A DNA stretch of 46,572 nt from the NCBI GenBank assembly GCA_009705865.1, contig WLSJ01000001.1, positions 1 through 46,572 on the forward strand. Direction: 5' to 3'. Below the pieces are notes generated by a model. It saw only the letters and a program-made list of their open reading frames with translations. It ran no database searches and was not told the origin of the DNA. The stretch comes from Actinomycetota bacterium. GTDB taxonomy: Bacteria; Actinomycetota; Acidimicrobiia; Acidimicrobiales; Ilumatobacteraceae. Shown in pieces: positions 8,393-46,572 of the stretch. Numbering within the stretch: the stretch's first letter is position 1; each line of letters opens with the position of its first letter. The position numbers and the translations under genes were made by a program.

Positions 8393-9124
8393 CTAGTTGT
8401 TTGCAGTGCGATTCAGGAATTGATGAGCAACGTCTGCATTACCAATGACTTCAAGTGACGACATAGGAATTCTGCGCCACAGTGCGAGCAAAAGATCTTG
8501 AGCAGTTCCTCGTAATGCACAGTCTCCCTTTGCATGTTCACGAGTCACAATGACTTCTGTTGTCTCTGTAGGCACAATTAGCCATTCACCATCAACGTCT
8601 GTGCAGTGAATGTGCACTGATCCGCTCAATACGTCTTCTTCTTCGCGGACATTGTGCACCGCCATTACATGTATGAACTCATCGATGCCATCACTTGCTA
8701 GGACGGAATCGATATGGGTTGTTTTGCCGGCCGCAGAATGTGCATCCCATGAATGAACTGCTGTCTCGTGAGCCATCCGCCGAATTACCCAGGCAACATC
8801 CTGGATGCCAGCCCATGTCCAGCATGAACGCGCAGGGTCAATAGACGATAAAACACTGATGAGCTCCTCGAGGCCCTTGCGGTATTCAGAGAGAAGATCT
8901 TTGTCGGCAGGCTTCGAACGCGGTACGTAATCATCGGGGTTCATCATGTGGCTTTCCACGATGAACTTCCATGAATAATGCACTTCGATCATGTGCCACA
9001 ACAGATCAGTTCCTACCCACGGTTCGCAGGAAGCAATGGGTGACGACATGGCAGTTGCTACAGAATCTGCAAATGCTACGCCTTCATGTCGCAATATTGC
9101 GAGGTAATCAGAAGACGTCAGCAT
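8393..9124 (-). CDS. mycothiol-dependent maleylpyruvate isomerase / DinB-family protein
   Basis: 243 aa with a DinB-like N-terminal four-helix region (LRHEGVAFADSV..., WVIRRMAHETAVHSWD) and the C-terminal domain typical of the actinobacterial mycothiol-dependent family. Confidence 0.75.
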   Translation of the reverse strand: MLTSSDYLAILRHEGVAFADSVATAMSSPIASCEPWVGTDLLWHMIEVHYSWKFIVESHMMNPDDYVPRSKPADKDLLSEYRKGLEELISVLSSIDPARSCWTWAGIQDVAWVIRRMAHETAVHSWDAHSAAGKTTHIDSVLASDGIDEFIHVMAVHNVREEEDVLSGSVHIHCTDVDGEWLIVPTETTEVIVTREHAKGDCALRGTAQDLLLALWRRIPMSSLEVIGNADVAHQFLNRTANN

Positions 9125-39770: not shown

Positions 39771-41129
39771 TCAGCTAAAGAATTGTTCGGGGATCATTCC
39801 CCGATGTGCATCTAGCAACTCATCGACAAGATTCCATATCTGGTCAAGGTCAAGCTCGGCAGCAGTATGCGGATCAAACATTGCGGCGTGATACACATGT
39901 TCGCGTTTTCCTGTCAATACAGCTTCAACCGTTAATGACTGAACATTGATATTGGTCTGCATTAGTGCTGCAAGATGCGGAGGTAACGCTCCAATAGTTA
40001 CAGGACTGATGCCTGAGGCATCAACAACACACGGAACTTCCACGCAACAATCATCTGGCAAATTGCTGATTATTCCGCGATTAGGCACGTTTCCGTACAC
40101 GGTGCGTGGAACCCCCGTCTCACAACTATGAATAATGCCGCTGCCATATTCCAAGCTTTGCACGACACGCAATTTTGCATCAGGGTTCTCTAAGCGAGTA
40201 CGCAACGACTCCCAGCCTTCAATCTGTCGCTCACACCGACGCGGATATTCATCAAGAGGAATTCCATATCGGTCTAGTAGGTCGGGGCGACCCCCCTTAA
40301 TAAACCACGGGACGTACTCACTGAAATGTTCACTTGACTCTGTCACGAAATACCCCAGCCGCTTAAACATCTCATAGCGAACAGCGTCTGACAATCCATC
40401 AAAACCACCATCACTTCGTTCAACATCTCCACGTGTTGGCATCGGAAACACATTTGCCCGTTCTGAGATTCGTGGATACAGATCAGTTACTTGAGAACCG
40501 ATTCGCTGCTGGAATTCCAGATAGAACGCCATGTGGTTGATACCGGCACATCTGTATTCAATGGTGTCCGCATCAATACCAAGATCGTCAGCTAATTGGT
40601 GTGCCGTGTGTTGCACGCTGTGACATAAACCAATGGTCTTGATAGCTGAAGCCCGGGAAATGGCCCAACACAACATGCTCATTGGATTGACATAATTCAA
40701 TAGCAACGCATCCGGGCATAGTTCTTCCATGTCACGACATATGTCCAACATAATTGGGATCGTTCGTAGCCCACGCATGATTCCACCAACACCAAGAGTG
40801 TCTGCAATCGTCTGTTCTAAGCCAAATTTCTTTGGGATTTCAAAATCAATAACTGTTGACGGCTTGTAGCCGCCAACTTGGAACATGGTGATGACGTAAT
40901 TTGCCCCCGCCAAAGCCTCGCGCCTATTTGTTGTTGCTTCAATTCGTGCAGTTACTCCAAGAGTTTCAACAATCTTGTGACCGACAATTTCTGAAGTACG
41001 AAGTCTTACTTCATCAATGTCATGCAACACAATGGTGCTATTTGATAATTCAGGAAAACTTAAAATGTCACCCATCAGGTTGCGAGCAAACACCGTGCTT
41101 CCAGCGCCGATAAAAACAATTCGTGCCAT
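39771..41129 (-). CDS. glycoside hydrolase family 4 (NAD/Mn-dependent alpha-galactosidase / alpha-glucosidase type)
   Basis: It has the N-terminal Rossmann motif RIVFIGAGSTVFARNL plus NYVNPM and GLCHSVQ. Length is 452 aa. Confidence 0.85.
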   Translation of the reverse strand: MARIVFIGAGSTVFARNLMGDILSFPELSNSTIVLHDIDEVRLRTSEIVGHKIVETLGVTARIEATTNRREALAGANYVITMFQVGGYKPSTVIDFEIPKKFGLEQTIADTLGVGGIMRGLRTIPIMLDICRDMEELCPDALLLNYVNPMSMLCWAISRASAIKTIGLCHSVQHTAHQLADDLGIDADTIEYRCAGINHMAFYLEFQQRIGSQVTDLYPRISERANVFPMPTRGDVERSDGGFDGLSDAVRYEMFKRLGYFVTESSEHFSEYVPWFIKGGRPDLLDRYGIPLDEYPRRCERQIEGWESLRTRLENPDAKLRVVQSLEYGSGIIHSCETGVPRTVYGNVPNRGIISNLPDDCCVEVPCVVDASGISPVTIGALPPHLAALMQTNINVQSLTVEAVLTGKREHVYHAAMFDPHTAAELDLDQIWNLVDELLDAHRGMIPEQFFS

Positions 41130-41157: not shown

Positions 41158-41988
41158 CTACAGGACATTTGTTGCCAGCAACACAACACAAATTGTGCCA
41201 ATTGCTAATCGGTACCACCCAAAGACCTTGAATGAATGCGACGCCAGATATCCCACCATCCACCGCACGGCCACAATGGCCGTGACAAAGGCGACCACCA
41301 ATCCAATTAATGGGGCGAGAAGACCAAACTGATCAACGACATCGCCACCATGCTTTGATAAATCCAGTGCTGTTGCAGCTGACAAAGTCACTAGGCCAAG
41401 CAGGAAGCTGAATTCAATCGCCGCTGACATTGTCATGCCCACAGCAAGTGCCGCAATCAACGTCGCCAGGCTGCGACTAACGCCGGGCCACAATGCAAGT
41501 GCTTGTGCGACACCAATAATGAAAGCAGACCTAATGGAGATCTCATGGAAAGCCAGTGAACCGTTAGTTGGACGCCACCACAGAAGAAATACGCCACCAA
41601 TCAACCACGCAATTGTCACAGGAACTGGACCAAACAATGCTTCTTTCATGGCGTCACCAACTGCCGCACCGATAAGAGCTGCAGGAAGGAAGGCAACGAC
41701 TAATCGCACCAAAGATTGCCTACCAACCGCATCAGCACCTATGAGGCCTCGCACTAGCGACCACACACGAATGCGATATAGATACAGCACAGCGAGAATT
41801 GCGCCGAACTGAATAGCTATGGAATACGTATCTGCAGCAGTGCTGGTTGAGCTAGTACCAAAACCAATGAGGTCTCCAACGACAAGCAAATGCCCAGTTG
41901 ATGAGATGGGCAGGAATTCAGTGACGCCTTCAACTATTCCTAAGAGAACGGCTTCTGGAATCGACAACAAGCCTGCAAACATATTCAC
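41158..41988 (-). CDS. uppP: undecaprenyl-diphosphate phosphatase
   Basis: 276 aa and polytopic, with the signature GIVEGVTEFLPISSTGHLLVVG near the N-terminus. The start is GTG 41988 or ATG 41982. Confidence 0.9.
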   Translation of the reverse strand: MNMFAGLLSIPEAVLLGIVEGVTEFLPISSTGHLLVVGDLIGFGTSSTSTAADTYSIAIQFGAILAVLYLYRIRVWSLVRGLIGADAVGRQSLVRLVVAFLPAALIGAAVGDAMKEALFGPVPVTIAWLIGGVFLLWWRPTNGSLAFHEISIRSAFIIGVAQALALWPGVSRSLATLIAALAVGMTMSAAIEFSFLLGLVTLSAATALDLSKHGGDVVDQFGLLAPLIGLVVAFVTAIVAVRWMVGYLASHSFKVFGWYRLAIGTICVVLLATNVL

Positions 41989-42014
41989 AGTCTCTCATAT
42001 GCCAATAATTGGCG

Positions 42015-42761
42015 TTAGTCAATCACTGCCCACAGTGACCATGACAGCTTTTGTCCATCAACCTTTAGTGATCCATACTTGGCCGGATATTGGTAATTAG
42101 CAATAGATGCCGCCATCGTGGTGAGGTCACGTGTCGCACATGCGGGTCCTTTTTGAAGAGTAAAGGAGTACTTTGCACCAATGATCAATGCGCTATCCAC
42201 TGCGGCAGTTACTTTTTGACGAACACCGACTTCATTTTTAGCGGTGTACGCCATTGTTGCCATTGGTAGCCCATTATCAGCCACAATCGATGCCTGAAGG
42301 CACACGGCATTGGGGTCCGTAGCTTCTGTTGCCTCTACCAAGACTCCAATATTTGGGCTCTCAATTTCTACCTGAACTGTCTTCACAGAGTTAGTGATTG
42401 AAGTAAACGTTTGTGTAACGGATTGCGCAATGTTGATTTTCGTGCTGTTCGTAGCAGATTTATCAATGGGGTATGTCCCCCACACACAGTAATCAGCCTT
42501 CTTTATCCCGGCACATGAACCAGACACCTTCTCTGCGACTGGCTTCTTTTTCGGCACCGTGCCTACTGGTGGCGCAACAGGTGGCGCGATCGGCAGCGTC
42601 GTTGTCGTAGTAGTCGTGGTCGTCGATGTAGTCGATGTTGTTGTTGATGTTGTCAATGGAGCAACCGTGGTAGTCGGACTGCTATCTCCACCTGAACACG
42701 AAGAGACAATGACAATGCTCATGAGCACTAGTGCCACAGACCGGATATTTCCTTTTTTCAT
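42015..42761 (-). CDS. lipoprotein with a Thr/Pro-rich linker, function unknown
   Basis: ATG 42761 overlaps the stop of the upstream metzincin gene (ATGA). The signal plus lipobox is MKKGNIRSVALVLMSIVIVSSC, followed by a poly-Thr and PxxP linker and a roughly 170-aa globular domain with 4 Cys. Confidence 0.75.
   Translation of the reverse strand: MKKGNIRSVALVLMSIVIVSSCSGGDSSPTTTVAPLTTSTTTSTTSTTTTTTTTTLPIAPPVAPPVGTVPKKKPVAEKVSGSCAGIKKADYCVWGTYPIDKSATNSTKINIAQSVTQTFTSITNSVKTVQVEIESPNIGVLVEATEATDPNAVCLQASIVADNGLPMATMAYTAKNEVGVRQKVTAAVDSALIIGAKYSFTLQKGPACATRDLTTMAASIANYQYPAKYGSLKVDGQKLSWSLWAVID
42597..42674 (-). repeat. ACN-codon (Thr/Ser) low-complexity tract
   Basis: It encodes TTTVAPLTTSTTTSTTSTTTTTTTTT. 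The plus strand reads as imperfect (GTN)n. Confidence 0.8.
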
Positions 42762-45229
42762 TTCACTACCGTGCTTGTTCTGAATATGGTGGATCCAGAA
42801 GTTCCACGGACAGATATTGCGATGTTCAATGTTGAGCCTGAGACAAGATTTTTTGCGATACAACTTGTTTTACTATCCGACTTACATGTGCCGGCAGAGG
42901 TTTTCACCTTCACAAGAGAAACAGCCCCCAAAGAATCCTTGACTGTCCACTTTATTTTGACCGTTCCCGCCTTAGGTGAGGTCACTACGGGTACAAGTTT
43001 GATCTTTCCGGGAATAATTCTCCCAGAAGAGAGCACGTGCAAAAGACGATAACCACTCGAGTAAATTTTCACGTTTCCTGTTGACATCGCTCGACCATAG
43101 CAGTAAGTATCTTTACCTTTTACAGCCGTAAACGAGAATTCTTTCGACGCTGGCGTAGCACCTTGGTTAAAACCATATTTGGAATTCTGTTTCCCCTTCA
43201 CGACACAATTGACTTCAAGCAAATTCACATTGTTCTGATCTAATTCCGCTGCCGTGGCTGTGACCAGTAGGTTTTTGCCTGAAAATTTCGCGCTCAGAAC
43301 CGGGTCTTCTGGGAGCCCAGCAAGCGTTCTAGTAGTGAACAATGTCTCTCTAGACCCGGTCGCATTGGTTCCCTTCGCTATTAATTGCACTGCTGTTTTC
43401 CGTGGTAGGTCAGAAAACGTACACACAGTGTCGCCAAGAACTGCCAACACACATGGTTCGCGGCCAGCAATCTCAATAGTTGGAGTCCCTTGGATTTCAG
43501 ACCCACCGTTCTCCACATGAACTGTTGCTACAACCGAGTCAGAAGTGGCCGTAAATGTAGAACGGAAGATAGGCGCGACGTTTGATAGCTGCGTGGCAGC
43601 CGAAGTAATGCGATTCGATGAAACAGCGCCATTTATCCCAGCAACTGTGGGAGAAACAACTGTCTCACGAGCAACATTGAGTATTTGACATGACGACTCC
43701 CATACAAATGCGGTACACGCTTTTGTTGCATCTTCTAGAAGATTCACAGACCATGAACTCGGTTCATCTTCTCCATAGGCGGAGCCAGCGACACCCCATG
43801 CCACGTTCAATGTGGCTTCACCTGACTGGTCAGCGGTCCCTGTCACGGTGGCTGGATCTGTTACAGCAAAACTCATTACAGGTTCAATACGCACCGTTGC
43901 ACTTGTGCCGTTGGTTGATTCGACTGAGACTGTGAATCGATTACGCGGGTCGGTCCATGATCGAAGTGCAGGAAGTCGAGGATCATTGGCATAGTCAATT
44001 GAGGTGAGAGATGCAGTGGGCGGAGTGATGTCACACAGATAGCTGGTACTAGACGCAACACCGACTACCCCTTCCAGACTTATTCGGTGAGTTGAAAAAT
44101 CTGCAGAAGGCTCATACGTGATTGTCACACCTCCGTTTACAGGAGCAGCAGCCGGAGAGATTGAGGTAATTACATTTGGGTTGTATTGCAGCCAGAATTC
44201 ATTATCACCCGCAGCGACATCAGTCGGCAAAATATTGACGGCAGTAGTTCCAAGGTCACTTCGGTCAGGTCTATTCAAAATGACCGTTTGTGCAGAGCCG
44301 GTCCATACTGCAACATTGGAAGCTGGAAGCCAACCAACGCTTTCCAAAAACGTCGGAGCATAATAACCAGAGGCACCGGCAATACCCATCGTGTCTGCGA
44401 GATTTCCGTATTCAACTTCCTCGCACGATTTCAAATACGTCAATGTCACGCCGGCATTGCAGGTGTTGGCATGAGGAAAGCCCATATTGTGTCCGAGCTC
44501 ATGTGCCCACACACCCATATAACCCGGGGCGGTGTAAGTCCAAGTCAATTTGCCTTCAACTTCACCTAGACCACCAAAGTTGCAATCTTGATTGTCGCCA
44601 GTAAAAGTCATCATGACATGGTCAGAACTCTCTGTTAACCCTTGCTTCTCAACATAAGCGAGAGCAAGGTCAGACATTTCATAAAAGTTGCATTGTCCAG
44701 CCGAATTGACCGAAGAGACATTTACTGTTGATAAAAAATTGACAGACAGAGTCTCTTGATTAGCCGACATACTGCGCCACCACGTTTTCAACTGTGTCGC
44801 AATTCCATTTGCCACTGTCCGGTCAGCGCTCTTCCATGTTGCACCAGACCACTGCAACGGCACCACCGTTACTGTGCGATTTGCTACCACAGCAGTTGAG
44901 TGCACTGGTCGACGGACCGTTATTGCTTTTGACAAAGAAGACGCCGTAACTTCCGATCCGACCTTTTTTGAAAACGACACAAGAGATCCGCTGCTTTGTT
45001 GAACTTCAACTTCTGAATCAACCGGAATTACACGATCGCTAGTCTTGACCACCCACGTGGAGTTACCCGCTGCTTCAAATCGCCCGTCATTAGAAGCCAG
45101 TTTGAGCAATGTGCCACTGATGGCATTGACCGCCGGAGTCATCGCTGCCTGTACTGGCGTAATCGCCGATGAAAAAGCCGCTGACCCAACTAGGACGAGA
45201 CTTGCCCCGAGCCACCGAAAACTTTTCAC
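42758..45229 (-). CDS. secreted metzincin-type zinc metalloprotease with multiple Ig/Fn3-like domains (gametolysin/M11-like core, tentative)
   Basis: GTG start and signal peptide MKSFRWLGASLVLVGSAAFSSAITPVQA. HELGHNMGFPH (HExxHxxGxxH) lies at nt 44503-44471, followed by EYGNLADTMG...ESVGWL. About 500 aa of beta-rich repeats follow. Confidence 0.8.
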   Translation of the reverse strand: MKSFRWLGASLVLVGSAAFSSAITPVQAAMTPAVNAISGTLLKLASNDGRFEAAGNSTWVVKTSDRVIPVDSEVEVQQSSGSLVSFSKKVGSEVTASSLSKAITVRRPVHSTAVVANRTVTVVPLQWSGATWKSADRTVANGIATQLKTWWRSMSANQETLSVNFLSTVNVSSVNSAGQCNFYEMSDLALAYVEKQGLTESSDHVMMTFTGDNQDCNFGGLGEVEGKLTWTYTAPGYMGVWAHELGHNMGFPHANTCNAGVTLTYLKSCEEVEYGNLADTMGIAGASGYYAPTFLESVGWLPASNVAVWTGSAQTVILNRPDRSDLGTTAVNILPTDVAAGDNEFWLQYNPNVITSISPAAAPVNGGVTITYEPSADFSTHRISLEGVVGVASSTSYLCDITPPTASLTSIDYANDPRLPALRSWTDPRNRFTVSVESTNGTSATVRIEPVMSFAVTDPATVTGTADQSGEATLNVAWGVAGSAYGEDEPSSWSVNLLEDATKACTAFVWESSCQILNVARETVVSPTVAGINGAVSSNRITSAATQLSNVAPIFRSTFTATSDSVVATVHVENGGSEIQGTPTIEIAGREPCVLAVLGDTVCTFSDLPRKTAVQLIAKGTNATGSRETLFTTRTLAGLPEDPVLSAKFSGKNLLVTATAAELDQNNVNLLEVNCVVKGKQNSKYGFNQGATPASKEFSFTAVKGKDTYCYGRAMSTGNVKIYSSGYRLLHVLSSGRIIPGKIKLVPVVTSPKAGTVKIKWTVKDSLGAVSLVKVKTSAGTCKSDSKTSCIAKNLVSGSTLNIAISVRGTSGSTIFRTSTVVK

Positions 45230-45253
45230 CTGCCCAATGTACCCAAGCCTGGG

Positions 45254-46042
45254 CTACTGAATCATGTTTTGCACGGCACTAGCGATGGGGCTGATGTCAA
45301 CATCGGCCCCACTTCCCTGTCCATCATTGGTTCCATGCCCAAACGGATTGTCAAGATCTTTCACCAGCAACAACAAATATGCATAGGCAAGGCTCAGAAC
45401 TGACGGGGCGATCCAGGACATGATGGTGGAGGGGAAACTAACAACCGCCAGAGAGACCTGCAGCACGAGCACAAGAAAACTCATTAATACGTAACCCGAT
45501 TGCACGAACGACGTGTTTCGAATGACCGCAATTCTGTTCAGTACTCCGGTCAATTCTCCGTTCAAGACCATGAGTCGACTGAGGTAATGAGTTGCTACTC
45601 CACTTTTCTCAACATCAACTATTAGTAACGCTAAATCGGAGTGCCTTTTCCATAACTCTTCGTCGCTGATTCTCCCTATGCACCACGAATTAATAGCAAT
45701 CCCCACTTCAGATATTCGCTGACGAAAAGAGCGCGCGTCTATCTCTTTCAGTGCCAAACCTGAACTGCAGGTTGTGTAGAAGCTTGTCAATGCCACGGCA
45801 ACGACTGCTGGCAATTTTTCAGATTCCTTATAGTCAGCGAGAACACCACCCAACATGAAACCCAAGATGAGCGTTACCCCCGTAATCACTGAACCGATCT
45901 CAGCAAAAGTGGCAACTTCTCCGATGTTAAAGACCTCACGCAGAATGACGCGCAATACCATTACCGCGATTACTACGGGAATCGATAACAGCAACAATCG
46001 CAGACGATTGAGGAATTTGTTCTGAAGCAATAAAGTTTTCAC
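45254..46042 (-). CDS. bestrophin-like / DUF4239-like integral membrane protein (tentative)
   Basis: 262 aa with four hydrophobic helices in a 2+2 arrangement around a soluble helical insert. The C-terminal KDLDNPFG...DVDISPI resembles the bacterial bestrophin EDPFG...D.D motif. GTG start at 46042. Confidence 0.65.
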   Translation of the reverse strand: MKTLLLQNKFLNRLRLLLLSIPVVIAVMVLRVILREVFNIGEVATFAEIGSVITGVTLILGFMLGGVLADYKESEKLPAVVAVALTSFYTTCSSGLALKEIDARSFRQRISEVGIAINSWCIGRISDEELWKRHSDLALLIVDVEKSGVATHYLSRLMVLNGELTGVLNRIAVIRNTSFVQSGYVLMSFLVLVLQVSLAVVSFPSTIMSWIAPSVLSLAYAYLLLLVKDLDNPFGHGTNDGQGSGADVDISPIASAVQNMIQ

Positions 46043-46063
46043 GGCAAAAACTTAGCGAGTTAT

Positions 46064-46101
46064 TGGCAGTCCCAACGGGATTCGAACCCGTGCCGCCACC
46101 T
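46064..46101 (-). pseudogene. tRNA 3'-half remnant (anticodon-stem 3' strand, variable loop, T-arm, acceptor 3' strand, CCA)
   Basis: The minus strand reads AGGTG-GCGGC-ACGGG-TTCGAAT-CCCGT-TGGGACT-G-CCA. No matching 5' acceptor strand (AGTCCCA) or D-arm lies upstream. Confidence 0.6.
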
Positions 46102-46148
46102 ACGACAAGTAGATGCCCGGTGGACGACATGGGTAGAAATTCTGACAC
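46098..46148 (-). pseudogene. 17-codon relic of a diverged uppP gene
   Basis: It translates to VSEFLPMSSTGHLLVVG, against VTEFLPISSTGHLLVVG in the intact UppP (41925-41875). That is 15/17 aa and 38/51 nt identical, and 11 of the 13 nt differences fall at third codon positions. TGA lies immediately upstream at 46151-46149. Confidence 0.65.
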
Positions 46149-46272
46149 TCATAGGCAATGCAGACCCACCAAAGTGTCCCGCCTTGATTGAATCGCTCTA
46201 TCCCATGGTTGGTTTGATTGACGAGTTAGGCTGGCATTTTAAGTAGACAGCAAATCTAATAAAGGTTCCATC

Positions 46273-46572
46273 ATGGCTTTCAATCGCTTCGGCACATTCA
46301 CACTCGGCATCATCATTGCTGCGGTATCAGCAGGAGCAGTGAACTTCGCAAACGCCGCAGGTAACACAACACTGAAAGCTTGTGCCGACAAAGCATCCGG
46401 CACGATGCGTTACATCTCAAAAGGCTCGTGCAAAAAGACTGAAAAAGCTCTGTCCTGGAATCAAATAGGCCCGTCTGGTGCAACCGGGACAAATGGTCAA
46501 AATCATTTTGCTGTGGATGCAACGGGAAAGACTTTAGGAGTAGTTACTGGCACTGGTTGGGGTGCGTATGAC
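46273..46572 (+). CDS. secreted protein with a Cys pair and short collagen-like G-X-Y run (3' end outside the window)
   Basis: The frame from ATG 46273 stays open to the window end (100 codons): MAFNRFGTFTLGIIIAAVSAGAVNFANAAGNTTLKACADKASGTMRYISKGSCKKTEKALSWNQIGPSGATGTNGQNHF.... It has a signal peptide and AAAGG 7 nt upstream. It is absent from the ORF track because no stop is reached. Confidence 0.65.
   Translation, partial: MAFNRFGTFTLGIIIAAVSAGAVNFANAAGNTTLKACADKASGTMRYISKGSCKKTEKALSWNQIGPSGATGTNGQNHFAVDATGKTLGVVTGTGWGAYD

Follow-up and report, generated by a model that had tools for sequence, protein, structure and literature searches.

Here we describe a recombination scar near the end of a 46,572-nucleotide (nt) stretch of DNA, referred to below as the window (contig WLSJ01000001.1 of assembly GCA_009705865.1), from a freshwater member of the Ilumatobacteraceae. 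The scar is a chimera in which a relic of uppP, the gene for undecaprenyl-diphosphate phosphatase, is joined to the 3' half of a tRNA-Glu(CTC) gene. Along the minus strand, the window contains an intergenic stretch, the uppP relic, the tRNA 3' half, a 21-nt spacer, three cassette genes that we refer to as cas1, cas2, and cas3, and a complete, resident uppP gene; the coordinates and geometry given for the relic, the tRNA half, the cassette, and the intact uppP in an earlier note on this DNA were confirmed. The gene starting at position 46273, on the far side of the intergenic stretch, is referred to as sec, the genes downstream of uppP are referred to as GH4 and LLM, and those upstream of tRNA-Glu are referred to as ECH and ACAD. 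The account that we favor, with a probability of roughly 0.55, is that the interval between tRNA-Glu and uppP is a hotspot, two common fillings of which, sec (next to uppP) and cas1-cas2-cas3, would have been concatenated in this genome through a single illegitimate joint, and that sec and the relic together form a mobile module.

The relic (positions 46097 to 46152, minus strand) was delineated by alignment to the sec-uppP regions of two related loci, L001 and L069 (loci are numbered with the prefix L throughout). Its translation from 46148 to 46102 (VSEFLPMSSTGHLLVVG; V-S-E-F-L-P-M-S-S-T-G-H-L-L-V-V-G) matches the resident UppP (VTEFLPISSTGHLLVVG; V-T-E-F-L-P-I-S-S-T-G-H-L-L-V-V-G) at 15 of 17 residues, while the best six-frame matches in 100 shuffles of the window reached 7 to 9 of 17. 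At the DNA level, 10 of 46 bases differ between the relic and the resident gene, nearly all of them at third codon positions, which indicates that the relic is no recent copy of the resident gene but stems from another, once-functional uppP allele that was under selection. It consists of a remnant of the motif in the uppP 5' untranslated region (AGTGTCAGA) joined to codons ~23 to 38, after which the tRNA part begins; compared with the sec-uppP regions of L001 and L069, a 74-nt deletion has removed the start codon and ~20 codons, and the remainder is collinear. An in-frame TGA lies immediately upstream. With ~17 codons left and no complete frame, the relic does not pass as a BacA protein, whereas the resident gene matches this profile over its full length. 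The search for a source allele among known uppP sequences did not discriminate between candidates, which match only 28 to 39 of the 46 bases, and an early impression that L001 was the best match rested on a 33-nt stretch only.

The tRNA half (46064 to 46101, minus strand; 38 nt) is nonfunctional and extends from the final base of the anticodon loop up to and including CCA. It was identified by alignment to the intact tRNA-Glu(CTC) genes that lie upstream of uppP, in the same orientation, at 13 loci (of which L008 and L039 belong to one metagenome-assembled genome [MAG]), and it differs from them by a single mismatch, or matches 39 of 40 bases when two flanking bases are counted. ARAGORN recognized no tRNA in the whole window, and the Rfam tRNA model matched only the T-arm of the half, at a subthreshold 15 bits compared with a gathering score of 29. 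The mismatch, a G-to-A change in the acceptor strand, is polymorphic within the species (G is present in L044 and L046), as is expected of dead sequence. The two parts are linked such that uppP codon 38 runs into the end of the tRNA-Glu anticodon loop, with a crossover microhomology of 4 to 5 nt, AGGTG (46101 to 46097), that is common to both parents; at this point, uppP alleles read GTAGGTGA (GT(A/N)GGTGA), the tRNA reads CAAGGTGG, and the joint reads GTAGGTGG. Taken together, the in-frame stop, the lost start codon, the polymorphic mismatch in the tRNA half, and a 1-nt deletion plus substitutions that the relic has acquired in a distant lineage (see below) mark the scar as nonfunctional and decaying.

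The joint is not an artifact of assembly, since it was found in identical form in at least 10 independent assemblies from ENA, NCBI, and JGI. An exact-protein look-up with UppP read from the ATG at 41982 returned 12 contigs with an identical UppP, ten of which were retrieved (L040 to L049), while no match was obtained with the protein read from the GTG start. These ten contigs represent different samples and stem from assemblies in ENA, NCBI, and Logan, are 97.6 to 99.9% identical to the window, and contain the same joint wherever they reach the site. Logan contigs assembled with short k-mers break at the tRNA repeat and thus neither span the joint nor show deletion variants.

The same contigs extend the locus beyond the window. 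An intact tRNA-Glu, for which the earlier note had recommended a search beyond the window end, is located ~480 to 550 nt past it and 25 nt beyond the sec stop codon (L041:4860-4935), and the scar carries a 38- to 40-nt direct repeat of this gene that is 97.5 to 100% identical to it (L041:5882-5921, equivalent to window positions 46101 to 46062). Farther out lie ACAD, ECH, tRNA-Gln, DUF218, and GltX. The overall order is therefore tRNA-Glu, sec (on the opposite strand), spacer, uppP relic, tRNA half, cas1, cas2, cas3, uppP, GH4, and LLM, with two interleaved pairs of direct repeats. Within it, direct repeats of the 3' end of tRNA-Glu enclose a module of ~0.95 kb that has sec as its sole cargo and the relic as its right end. 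In the window species (L040 to L042), the module and the 10 kb to its left and right contain no integrase or recombinase gene, a result that extends to the surrounding DNA the earlier note's observation that none is visible in the window itself. A patch of ~200 nt in ACAD, just upstream of tRNA-Glu (L041:4250-4450), differs by ~5% between contigs of the window species with 100% identity elsewhere, which suggests short recombination tracts near the hotspot.

The same module was found in a second, distant lineage. Scanning metagenomes for the joint, with the uppP side kept degenerate at synonymous positions, gave four loci (L057 to L060), of which L060 belongs to the window species and L058 and L059 belong to a different lineage, and look-ups with sec orthologs then gave long contigs of that lineage (L061 to L068). 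The order there is GltX, DUF218, tRNA-Gln, tRNA-Glu, the module (sec, spacer, uppP relic, and tRNA half), a Liv-type ABC transporter operon, a deacetylase gene, and an MFS gene, and neither uppP nor the cassette was found near the module in the contigs examined. The backbone is remote from that of the window species, with amino acid identities of 73.5% for GltX, 55% for DUF218, and 75% for DUF2237. Despite this distance, the joint and the 74-nt deletion are the same in every module that bears the joint, and these modules are 88 to 91% identical to each other at the nucleotide level, compared with only 78 to 81% identity to the modules of L001 and L069. This combination indicates that the joint arose once and that the module then moved horizontally into another tRNA-Glu; the joint was made in a genome in which sec abutted uppP. 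The relic of the distant lineage has lost 1 nt, which breaks the frame, and has acquired additional substitutions, and hence it is evolving neutrally. A scenario in which the joint is ancient and L001 and L051 are derived from it by deletion was considered but is disfavored: most of the differences between the relic and functional alleles are synonymous, 15 of its 17 residues are retained, and it is therefore young in comparison with the divergence of those two lineages (~80% at the nucleotide level). Gene content also varies directly downstream of the half tRNA in this lineage: L058 (positions 33 to 120) has no Liv-type ABC operon, and its tRNA half is truncated before CCA, in comparison with L061 (reverse complement, 8968 to 9010).

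Close relatives of the window species show the site without the module. Three loci (L072, L073, and L074) that were found through 97 to 98% identical cas2 and UppP proteins align with the window species at 97 to 97.5% nucleotide identity over 4.6 to 15 kb from cas1 onward, L072 through cas3 into uppP and L073 and L074 on into GH4, LLM, and later genes. In all three, an intact tRNA-Glu is followed by the same flank (ATAACTCGCTAAGTTTTTG) and then by cas1, with neither sec nor a relic in between, and they thus represent an exact empty site. The 21-nt spacer of the window (ATAACTCGCTAAGTTTTTGCC; 46043 to 46063, minus strand) is this native tRNA-Glu 3' flank. A joint-bearing locus, L057, which is 97% identical to the window and carries the small gene C48 between the tRNA half and cas1, is 99 to 100% identical to L073 over the cassette, uppP, and GH4. 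From these comparisons, the unit that varies between strains is the sec-relic module (and C48), while the cassette and the resident uppP stay constant and form a stable local context in this species. Upstream of tRNA-Glu, in ECH-ACAD, the window species and L073 are ~94% identical, compared with 97.5% downstream, and no sharp breakpoint is visible. A further contig of 1.7 kb (L050) shares 97% identity with the window species in the part upstream of tRNA-Glu, and in it the tRNA gene directly precedes a uppP that is 87% identical; this contig may be an assembly chimera formed through the tRNA and was therefore not relied on.

These results change the reading of the locus in one respect. The earlier note had proposed that the relic and the intact uppP bracket a cassette that was inserted into uppP. 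This does not agree with the occurrence of the same joint, together with the sec module, in a lineage with neither uppP nor the cassette nearby, and among close relatives it is not the cassette that comes and goes, as those without the relic are 97 to 100% identical over cassette, uppP, and downstream genes and what varies is the ~0.95-kb module on the other side of the relic. The relic is hence conserved independently of the cassette, an outcome that the note had itself set against its proposal. A second suggestion, that of a second uppP copy decayed and overwritten at a tRNA-linked recombination hotspot, comes close to what is present, a second copy truncated at such a hotspot.

Between tRNA-Glu(CTC) and uppP lies a recombination hotspot, or flexible island, in which genes for secreted or membrane proteins are swapped. 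A UppP scan of species-representative genomes gave 19 related loci, all from MAGs of freshwater Ilumatobacteraceae or Acidimicrobiia, and among about 30 lineages the interval has at least 12 different gene contents. It is empty in L006 and L050, contains only C48, a small SHOCT-domain gene, in L007, L008, and L039, only sec in L001 and L069 to L071, only cas1 in L013, L016, and L017, and only C31, an acyl-CoA ligase-like gene, in L018 and L019. The complete cas1-cas2-cas3 cassette occupies it in L002, L003, L011, L012, L014, L015, and L072 to L074. Mixed contents are cas1, C31, cas2, and cas3 (L004), cas1 and C31 (L009), a 57-nt remnant of cas1 with cas2-cas3 (L051 to L056), cas2-cas3 with a collagen-repeat gene (L010), the joint with C48 and cas1-3 (L057), and, in the window, sec, the joint, and cas1-3. 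Such exchanges occur between near relatives, as the sister lineages L001 and L051 are ~90% identical at the nucleotide level, yet the former has sec and the latter cas2-cas3 at this position. The flanks ECH-ACAD and GH4-LLM are conserved in most configurations and are absent or not seen in L018 and L039. The tRNA-linked flexible-island boundary postulated in the earlier note is thus borne out by relatives in which uppP lies next to tRNA-Glu (L006 and L050), next to sec without the cassette (L001 and L069 to L071), or next to other fillings. The gene that usually follows tRNA-Glu is cas1, which is located directly downstream of the intact tRNA gene in L003, L004, L009, L011, L012, L014, L015, L072, L073, and L074. 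In the sec-type arrangement of L001, L069, L070, and L071, tRNA-Glu, sec, a spacer, and a full uppP follow each other, and as the sec, spacer, and relic of the window are collinear with this arrangement, the relic can be recognized as the stump of a uppP gene that once adjoined sec.

The resident uppP, although it is the conserved right-hand border of the hotspot, is an outlier allele. Its product shares 77 to 80% of amino acids with that of every relative whose flanking GH4 and LLM are 89 to 95% identical, including L001, L051, and L069, for which GH4 and LLM are 93 to 95% identical to those of the window; the uppP alleles of these relatives are ~89 to 91% identical among themselves, and the nearest non-self allele is 87% identical (P0007/L050). 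Identity to uppP of the outgroup L016 is 72% for the window and 73 to 77% for the relatives, and since this distance is not correspondingly inflated, a simple acceleration of rate is unlikely. A similarly deep branch was found for cas1: for both genes, the distance from the window to the main group is about 0.84 of that from L016 to the main group, compared with 0.3 to 0.6 for the flanking genes. The outlier pattern appears to continue from cas1 to about position 40630 inside GH4, where it would include ~500 nt of the 5' part of this gene (~40630 to 41129), which suggests a recombination tract that may end inside GH4. The genes in between, cas2 and cas3, match those of L051 as closely as the backbone does (~83% at the nucleotide level). 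The pattern implies that the cas1-to-uppP block, whole or in parts, was exchanged at some time and that uppP lay within the exchanged tract and is not a mere border.

With these data, the origin of the scar can be sketched, although its polarity and the enzyme or pathway behind it are inferred. What the comparisons show is one illegitimate joint, made in a sec-type genome, at which uppP codon 38 meets the boundary of the tRNA-Glu anticodon loop at the AGGTG microhomology. As to direction, we prefer, at about even odds, the entry of the module into a cassette-type genome. Homologous recombination within tRNA-Glu or upstream of it would have anchored the left end of DNA that came from a sec-type relative. 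The right end would have failed to reach uppP, and with it to replace the cassette, and would have been linked illegitimately to the tRNA-Glu of the recipient. The sec filling would thereby have come to lie before the cassette and the 3' end of the tRNA gene would have been duplicated, so that a failed island replacement turned into an addition. This direction is preferred on account of the strain-level polymorphism, the greater upstream divergence, the prevalence of the cassette-type arrangement, and the demonstrated mobility of the module; in particular, the ~94% identity upstream compared with 97.5% downstream fits donor DNA that came in from the left.

Several observations weigh against this account, and most of them bear on the opposite polarity, which is possible but has a clearly lower probability in our assessment. 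Here, a sec-type genome would have received the 3' part of tRNA-Glu, cas1-3, and a complete foreign uppP, possibly with ~500 nt of GH4, through homologous recombination in or after uppP at the right end and an illegitimate joint, at the left end, to codon 38 of the native uppP, which would have been truncated to the relic by this event, and relatives without the relic would be the products of later deletions between the tRNA repeats. The geometry of relic and uppP fits this sequence of events, and a deletion between the two tRNA repeats would indeed recreate the exact empty site of L072 to L074. The deep-branching uppP and cas1 would likewise fit the import of a cas-uppP block, with the resident UppP at 77 to 80% identity even to that of L001, L051, and L069, whose GH4 is 94 to 95% identical, and with the outlier pattern apparently reaching from cas1 to about 40630, while the preferred polarity needs a separate, earlier replacement to explain them. 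In addition, the sec module is 80% identical at the nucleotide level to the modules of L001 and L069, about as much as the backbone is, as would be expected if it were native, and a donor uppP that matches the relic was not found, the best among the known alleles agreeing at 39 of 46 bases. We initially favored this polarity because of the foreign-looking uppP but downgraded it after the joint had been found in other contexts and empty-site relatives had come to light. Among the closest relatives (97 to 100% identical), it is the sec-relic module that varies and the cassette with the resident uppP that is constant, and the unit that was seen moving, into the distant lineage, is again this module. 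L057 and L073, which differ at the site and are 99 to 100% identical downstream of it, point the same way, since a simple repeat deletion starting from L057 would have left behind C48 and its flank, and L073 has neither. Finally, cas2 and cas3 are as near to L051 as the backbone (83% at the nucleotide level) and do not look foreign, and the composition is core-like.

The tRNA-side breakpoint lies within 1 nt of that of an otherwise unrelated island remnant in L007, and this single comparison hints that a site-specific recombinase, rather than random joining, may have made the joint. Accordingly phrased, the sec module would be a decayed, tRNA-Glu-integrating island akin to a cis-mobilizable element (CIME), the uppP fragment would have been captured by aberrant excision through a tyrosine recombinase at a pseudo-att site in uppP (GTAGGTGA compared with CAAGGTGG), and gain and loss at tRNA-Glu would proceed via the 38- to 40-nt repeat with help in trans. 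We regard this as a serious variant, although a less probable one than either polarity. The insertion is exact, with a precise empty site, the distant genome was entered at the same tRNA, and in L016 and L013 a tyrosine recombinase gene (Pfam Phage_integrase, E = 4e-29) does adjoin a second, degenerate tRNA-Glu, the island of L016 containing three sec-like genes with the N terminus of the window sec. However, these integrase-bearing islands end in a nearly full-length pseudo-tRNA and not in a 38-nt half, the window species has no integrase in the module or in the 10 kb to either side, and a clean site-specific insertion would not predict an upstream flank that is more diverged (94%) than the downstream one (97.5%). 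Much less probable still is that relic and tRNA half serve a function as a small protein-coding gene (64 to 70 amino acids), a tRNA-like RNA, or a regulatory element. A 70-codon open reading frame (ORF; 45936 to 46148, minus strand) crosses the relic, the tRNA half, and the start of cas1 and is called as a 64-amino-acid gene in several public assemblies, but it overlaps the cas1 start, is without independent homologs, is interrupted by the 1-nt deletion in L061 and L066, and is absent along with the rest of the scar from relatives that are 99 to 100% identical; this ORF is spurious, an artifact of annotation. The 5' end GGCCCCA in L058 and L059 could pair with the acceptor 3' strand, but a tRNA-like reading of it was rejected, as the changes in L061 and L068 (the latter with GTCCCCA) are noncompensatory, and neither ARAGORN nor Rfam recognizes a tRNA here. 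That contigs of two co-occurring strains were joined during assembly through shared tRNA sequence can practically be discounted. The tRNA segment of 38 nt is repeated across the community at k-mer depths in the thousands, Logan contigs break there, and the short contig L050 could be such a chimera, but the joint itself is spanned identically in the at least 10 assemblies from differing samples and pipelines (contig names suggest several assemblers), recurs in a diverged form in a second lineage, and has similar depth on both sides in three of four runs.

The individual parts of the locus all belong to known categories, namely, a tRNA-linked flexible island, an att-like repeat, and a microhomology joint, and we consider it an unusually clear example and not a new kind of system. 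CIMEs lack genes for integration and transfer but keep attL and attR (PMC5704250). Similar to these and other tRNA-linked islands, the module lies between direct repeats that comprise the 3' end of the tRNA from the anticodon loop on, has an exact empty site, occupies the same tRNA in a distant genome, and has relatives with a tyrosine recombinase at this tRNA. Unlike them, it has no integrase in or near it (recombinases at tRNA-Glu occur only in other lineages, L016 and L013); no parent integrative element was identified for it; it measures only ~0.95 kb with one cargo gene; and the arm beside its right repeat is a fragment of a housekeeping gene and not element DNA. In homology-facilitated illegitimate recombination, one end of the incoming DNA is homologous and the other is joined illegitimately (PMC3240628), and this process has been invoked for the sequential displacement of gene arrays in Vibrio (PMC5361080). 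The 4 to 5 shared bases at one joint (uppP codon 38 and the tRNA anticodon stem), the presumed homology on the other side, and the addition of foreign DNA beside an anchor with a relic left behind all resemble its products, with the difference that the process, including its anchor side, is here deduced from sequence only. Replacement and additive flexible islands at conserved positions have been described for freshwater and marine Methylophilaceae (PMC10872708). The hotspot studied here agrees with such islands of streamlined aquatic bacteria in its fixed position between conserved genes, its secreted and surface proteins, a content that varies between and within species, and highly diverged alleles (cas2, ~55% at the amino acid level) between flanks that are ~90% identical; it differs in that a molecular scar records one event in which two fillings were concatenated and in that the border gene uppP takes part.

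The capture of a neighboring gene fragment also has a parallel in bacteriophages. The specialized transducing gal and bio phages of lambda form by aberrant excision, in which flanking host DNA is captured. In the same way, a fragment of a gene that once flanked the module travels with it, but no phage or excisionase is visible at the module. A more far-reaching reading, which we consider speculative and improbable, is that the joint functions as the active end of a minimal island with one gene and no integrase, which would spread from genus to genus via the conserved tRNA-Glu 3' end, by short-homology recombination or with an Xer-like recombinase acting in trans, and that the conserved uppP motif serves as a secondary recombination site. 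If this were true, uppP would be an active partner in island exchange and not a passive border.

Of the resident genes, the intact uppP (41158 to 41988, minus strand) matches Pfam BacA over its full length with an E value of 2.8e-67; in public assemblies it starts at the ATG at 41982, which gives a protein of 274 amino acids. Upstream of it, cas3 (42015 to 42761, minus strand) is predicted from its ORF and translation to encode a secreted or lipoprotein-like protein with a Thr-rich linker, for which searches of Pfam and NCBIfam gave no match; its amino acid identity is 84% to L051 and 49 to 55% to the main group, and its nucleotide identity is 97% in the relic-free relatives L073 and L074. The adjacent cas2 (42758 to 45229, minus strand) encodes an 823-amino-acid secreted zinc metalloprotease that resembles M66 (StcE) and has an HELGHNMGFPH motif. 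Its match to Pfam Peptidase_M66 (E = 2.5e-5) is barely above the cutoff, and its homologs carry the name M66 family metalloprotease; cas2 is 88% identical to its counterpart in the L051 lineage, compared with ~55% for the main group. The ~55% and ~50% amino acid identities of cas2 and cas3 between lineages whose flanking genes are ~90% identical suggest that this protease and mucin-like pair may be subject to allelic replacement or strong diversifying selection. The first gene of the cassette, cas1 (45254 to 46042, minus strand), encodes a multipass membrane protein of 235 amino acids from the ATG at 45961 or 262 amino acids from the GTG at 46042, with only a faint bestrophin-like match.

On the other side of the scar, the divergent intergenic region between sec and, originally, uppP (46153 to 46272) has collinear counterparts in the sec-uppP spacer of L001 and L069 and in the distant-lineage modules. 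It is followed by sec (46273 to 46572, plus strand), which runs off the window after the first 100 of 249 codons for a secreted protein; the full gene is present at L041:4961-5710, and its orthologs are 82 to 87% identical. The sec family has >200 homologs in which the signal peptide and an N terminus of ~65 amino acids are conserved and the C-terminal domains vary, many of them with collagen triple-helix repeats. L016 has three tandem sec-like copies, and the three collagen-repeat/Lcl_C genes of this kind lie in a 4.3-kb island that is closed by a second tRNA-Glu. This second tRNA-Glu copy (L016:9029-9099 and L013:~1130-1225) has a hairpin-like insertion of ~20 nt in the D-arm (GTTGGCTGTCCGAAGGACAGGACC) and adjoins a gene for an Xer-like tyrosine recombinase (L016:8090-8929 and L013:214-1086).

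Further variability was noted around tRNA-Glu. C48, which encodes a SHOCT-domain membrane protein, recurs immediately after tRNA-Glu or its 3' half (L057:146-508, L007:1432-1845, and L008:166-444). The island remnant in L007 (positions 1 to 1519) terminates in a 3' half of tRNA-Glu whose boundary is the same and contains an OGG-like DNA glycosylase-family gene and an unknown gene, with no integrase in the visible 1.5 kb. Variability extends to the neighboring interval from tRNA-Gln to tRNA-Glu, which measures between about 40 nt and 5.2 kb (e.g., L039:4138-4179 and L018:3080-8250) and holds a gene for a 1,693-amino-acid repetitive surface protein in L018, a TetR-like gene in L001 and L014, and a pentapeptide-repeat gene in L009 and L015.

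The composition of the cassette gives no indication of a foreign origin. Across 40 genes of the window, the G+C content per gene is 51.2% ± 1.8%, and the values of 48.3% for cas2 and 47.1% for cas1 agree with the lower G+C content of the cassette that the earlier note had counted by hand. However, the core gene GH4 is equally low (46.7%), and the G+C content at third codon positions (GC3; 42.4% for cas2 and 52.5% for cas1, with a mean of 46.6% ± 3.5%) and the codon-usage distance of the cassette are not outliers. The low G+C content sits in the first and second codon positions and hence reflects amino acid composition, in line with the reservation in that note about other AT-richer genes, and a foreign origin deduced from composition was rejected on these grounds.

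In summary, the scar described here documents, nucleotide by nucleotide, the rebuilding of a flexible island in a lake bacterium that is abundant, uncultured, and streamlined and shows no obvious mobile-element machinery. Some practical lessons follow from it, as a spurious 64-amino-acid ORF has been annotated across the scar, a 38-nt tRNA repeat breaks short-k assemblies, and a compositional test would miss the island. Beyond this, the captured uppP fragment acts as a provenance tag, which marks the sec module as having moved from a genome in which it abutted uppP to a distant lineage that has no uppP nearby.

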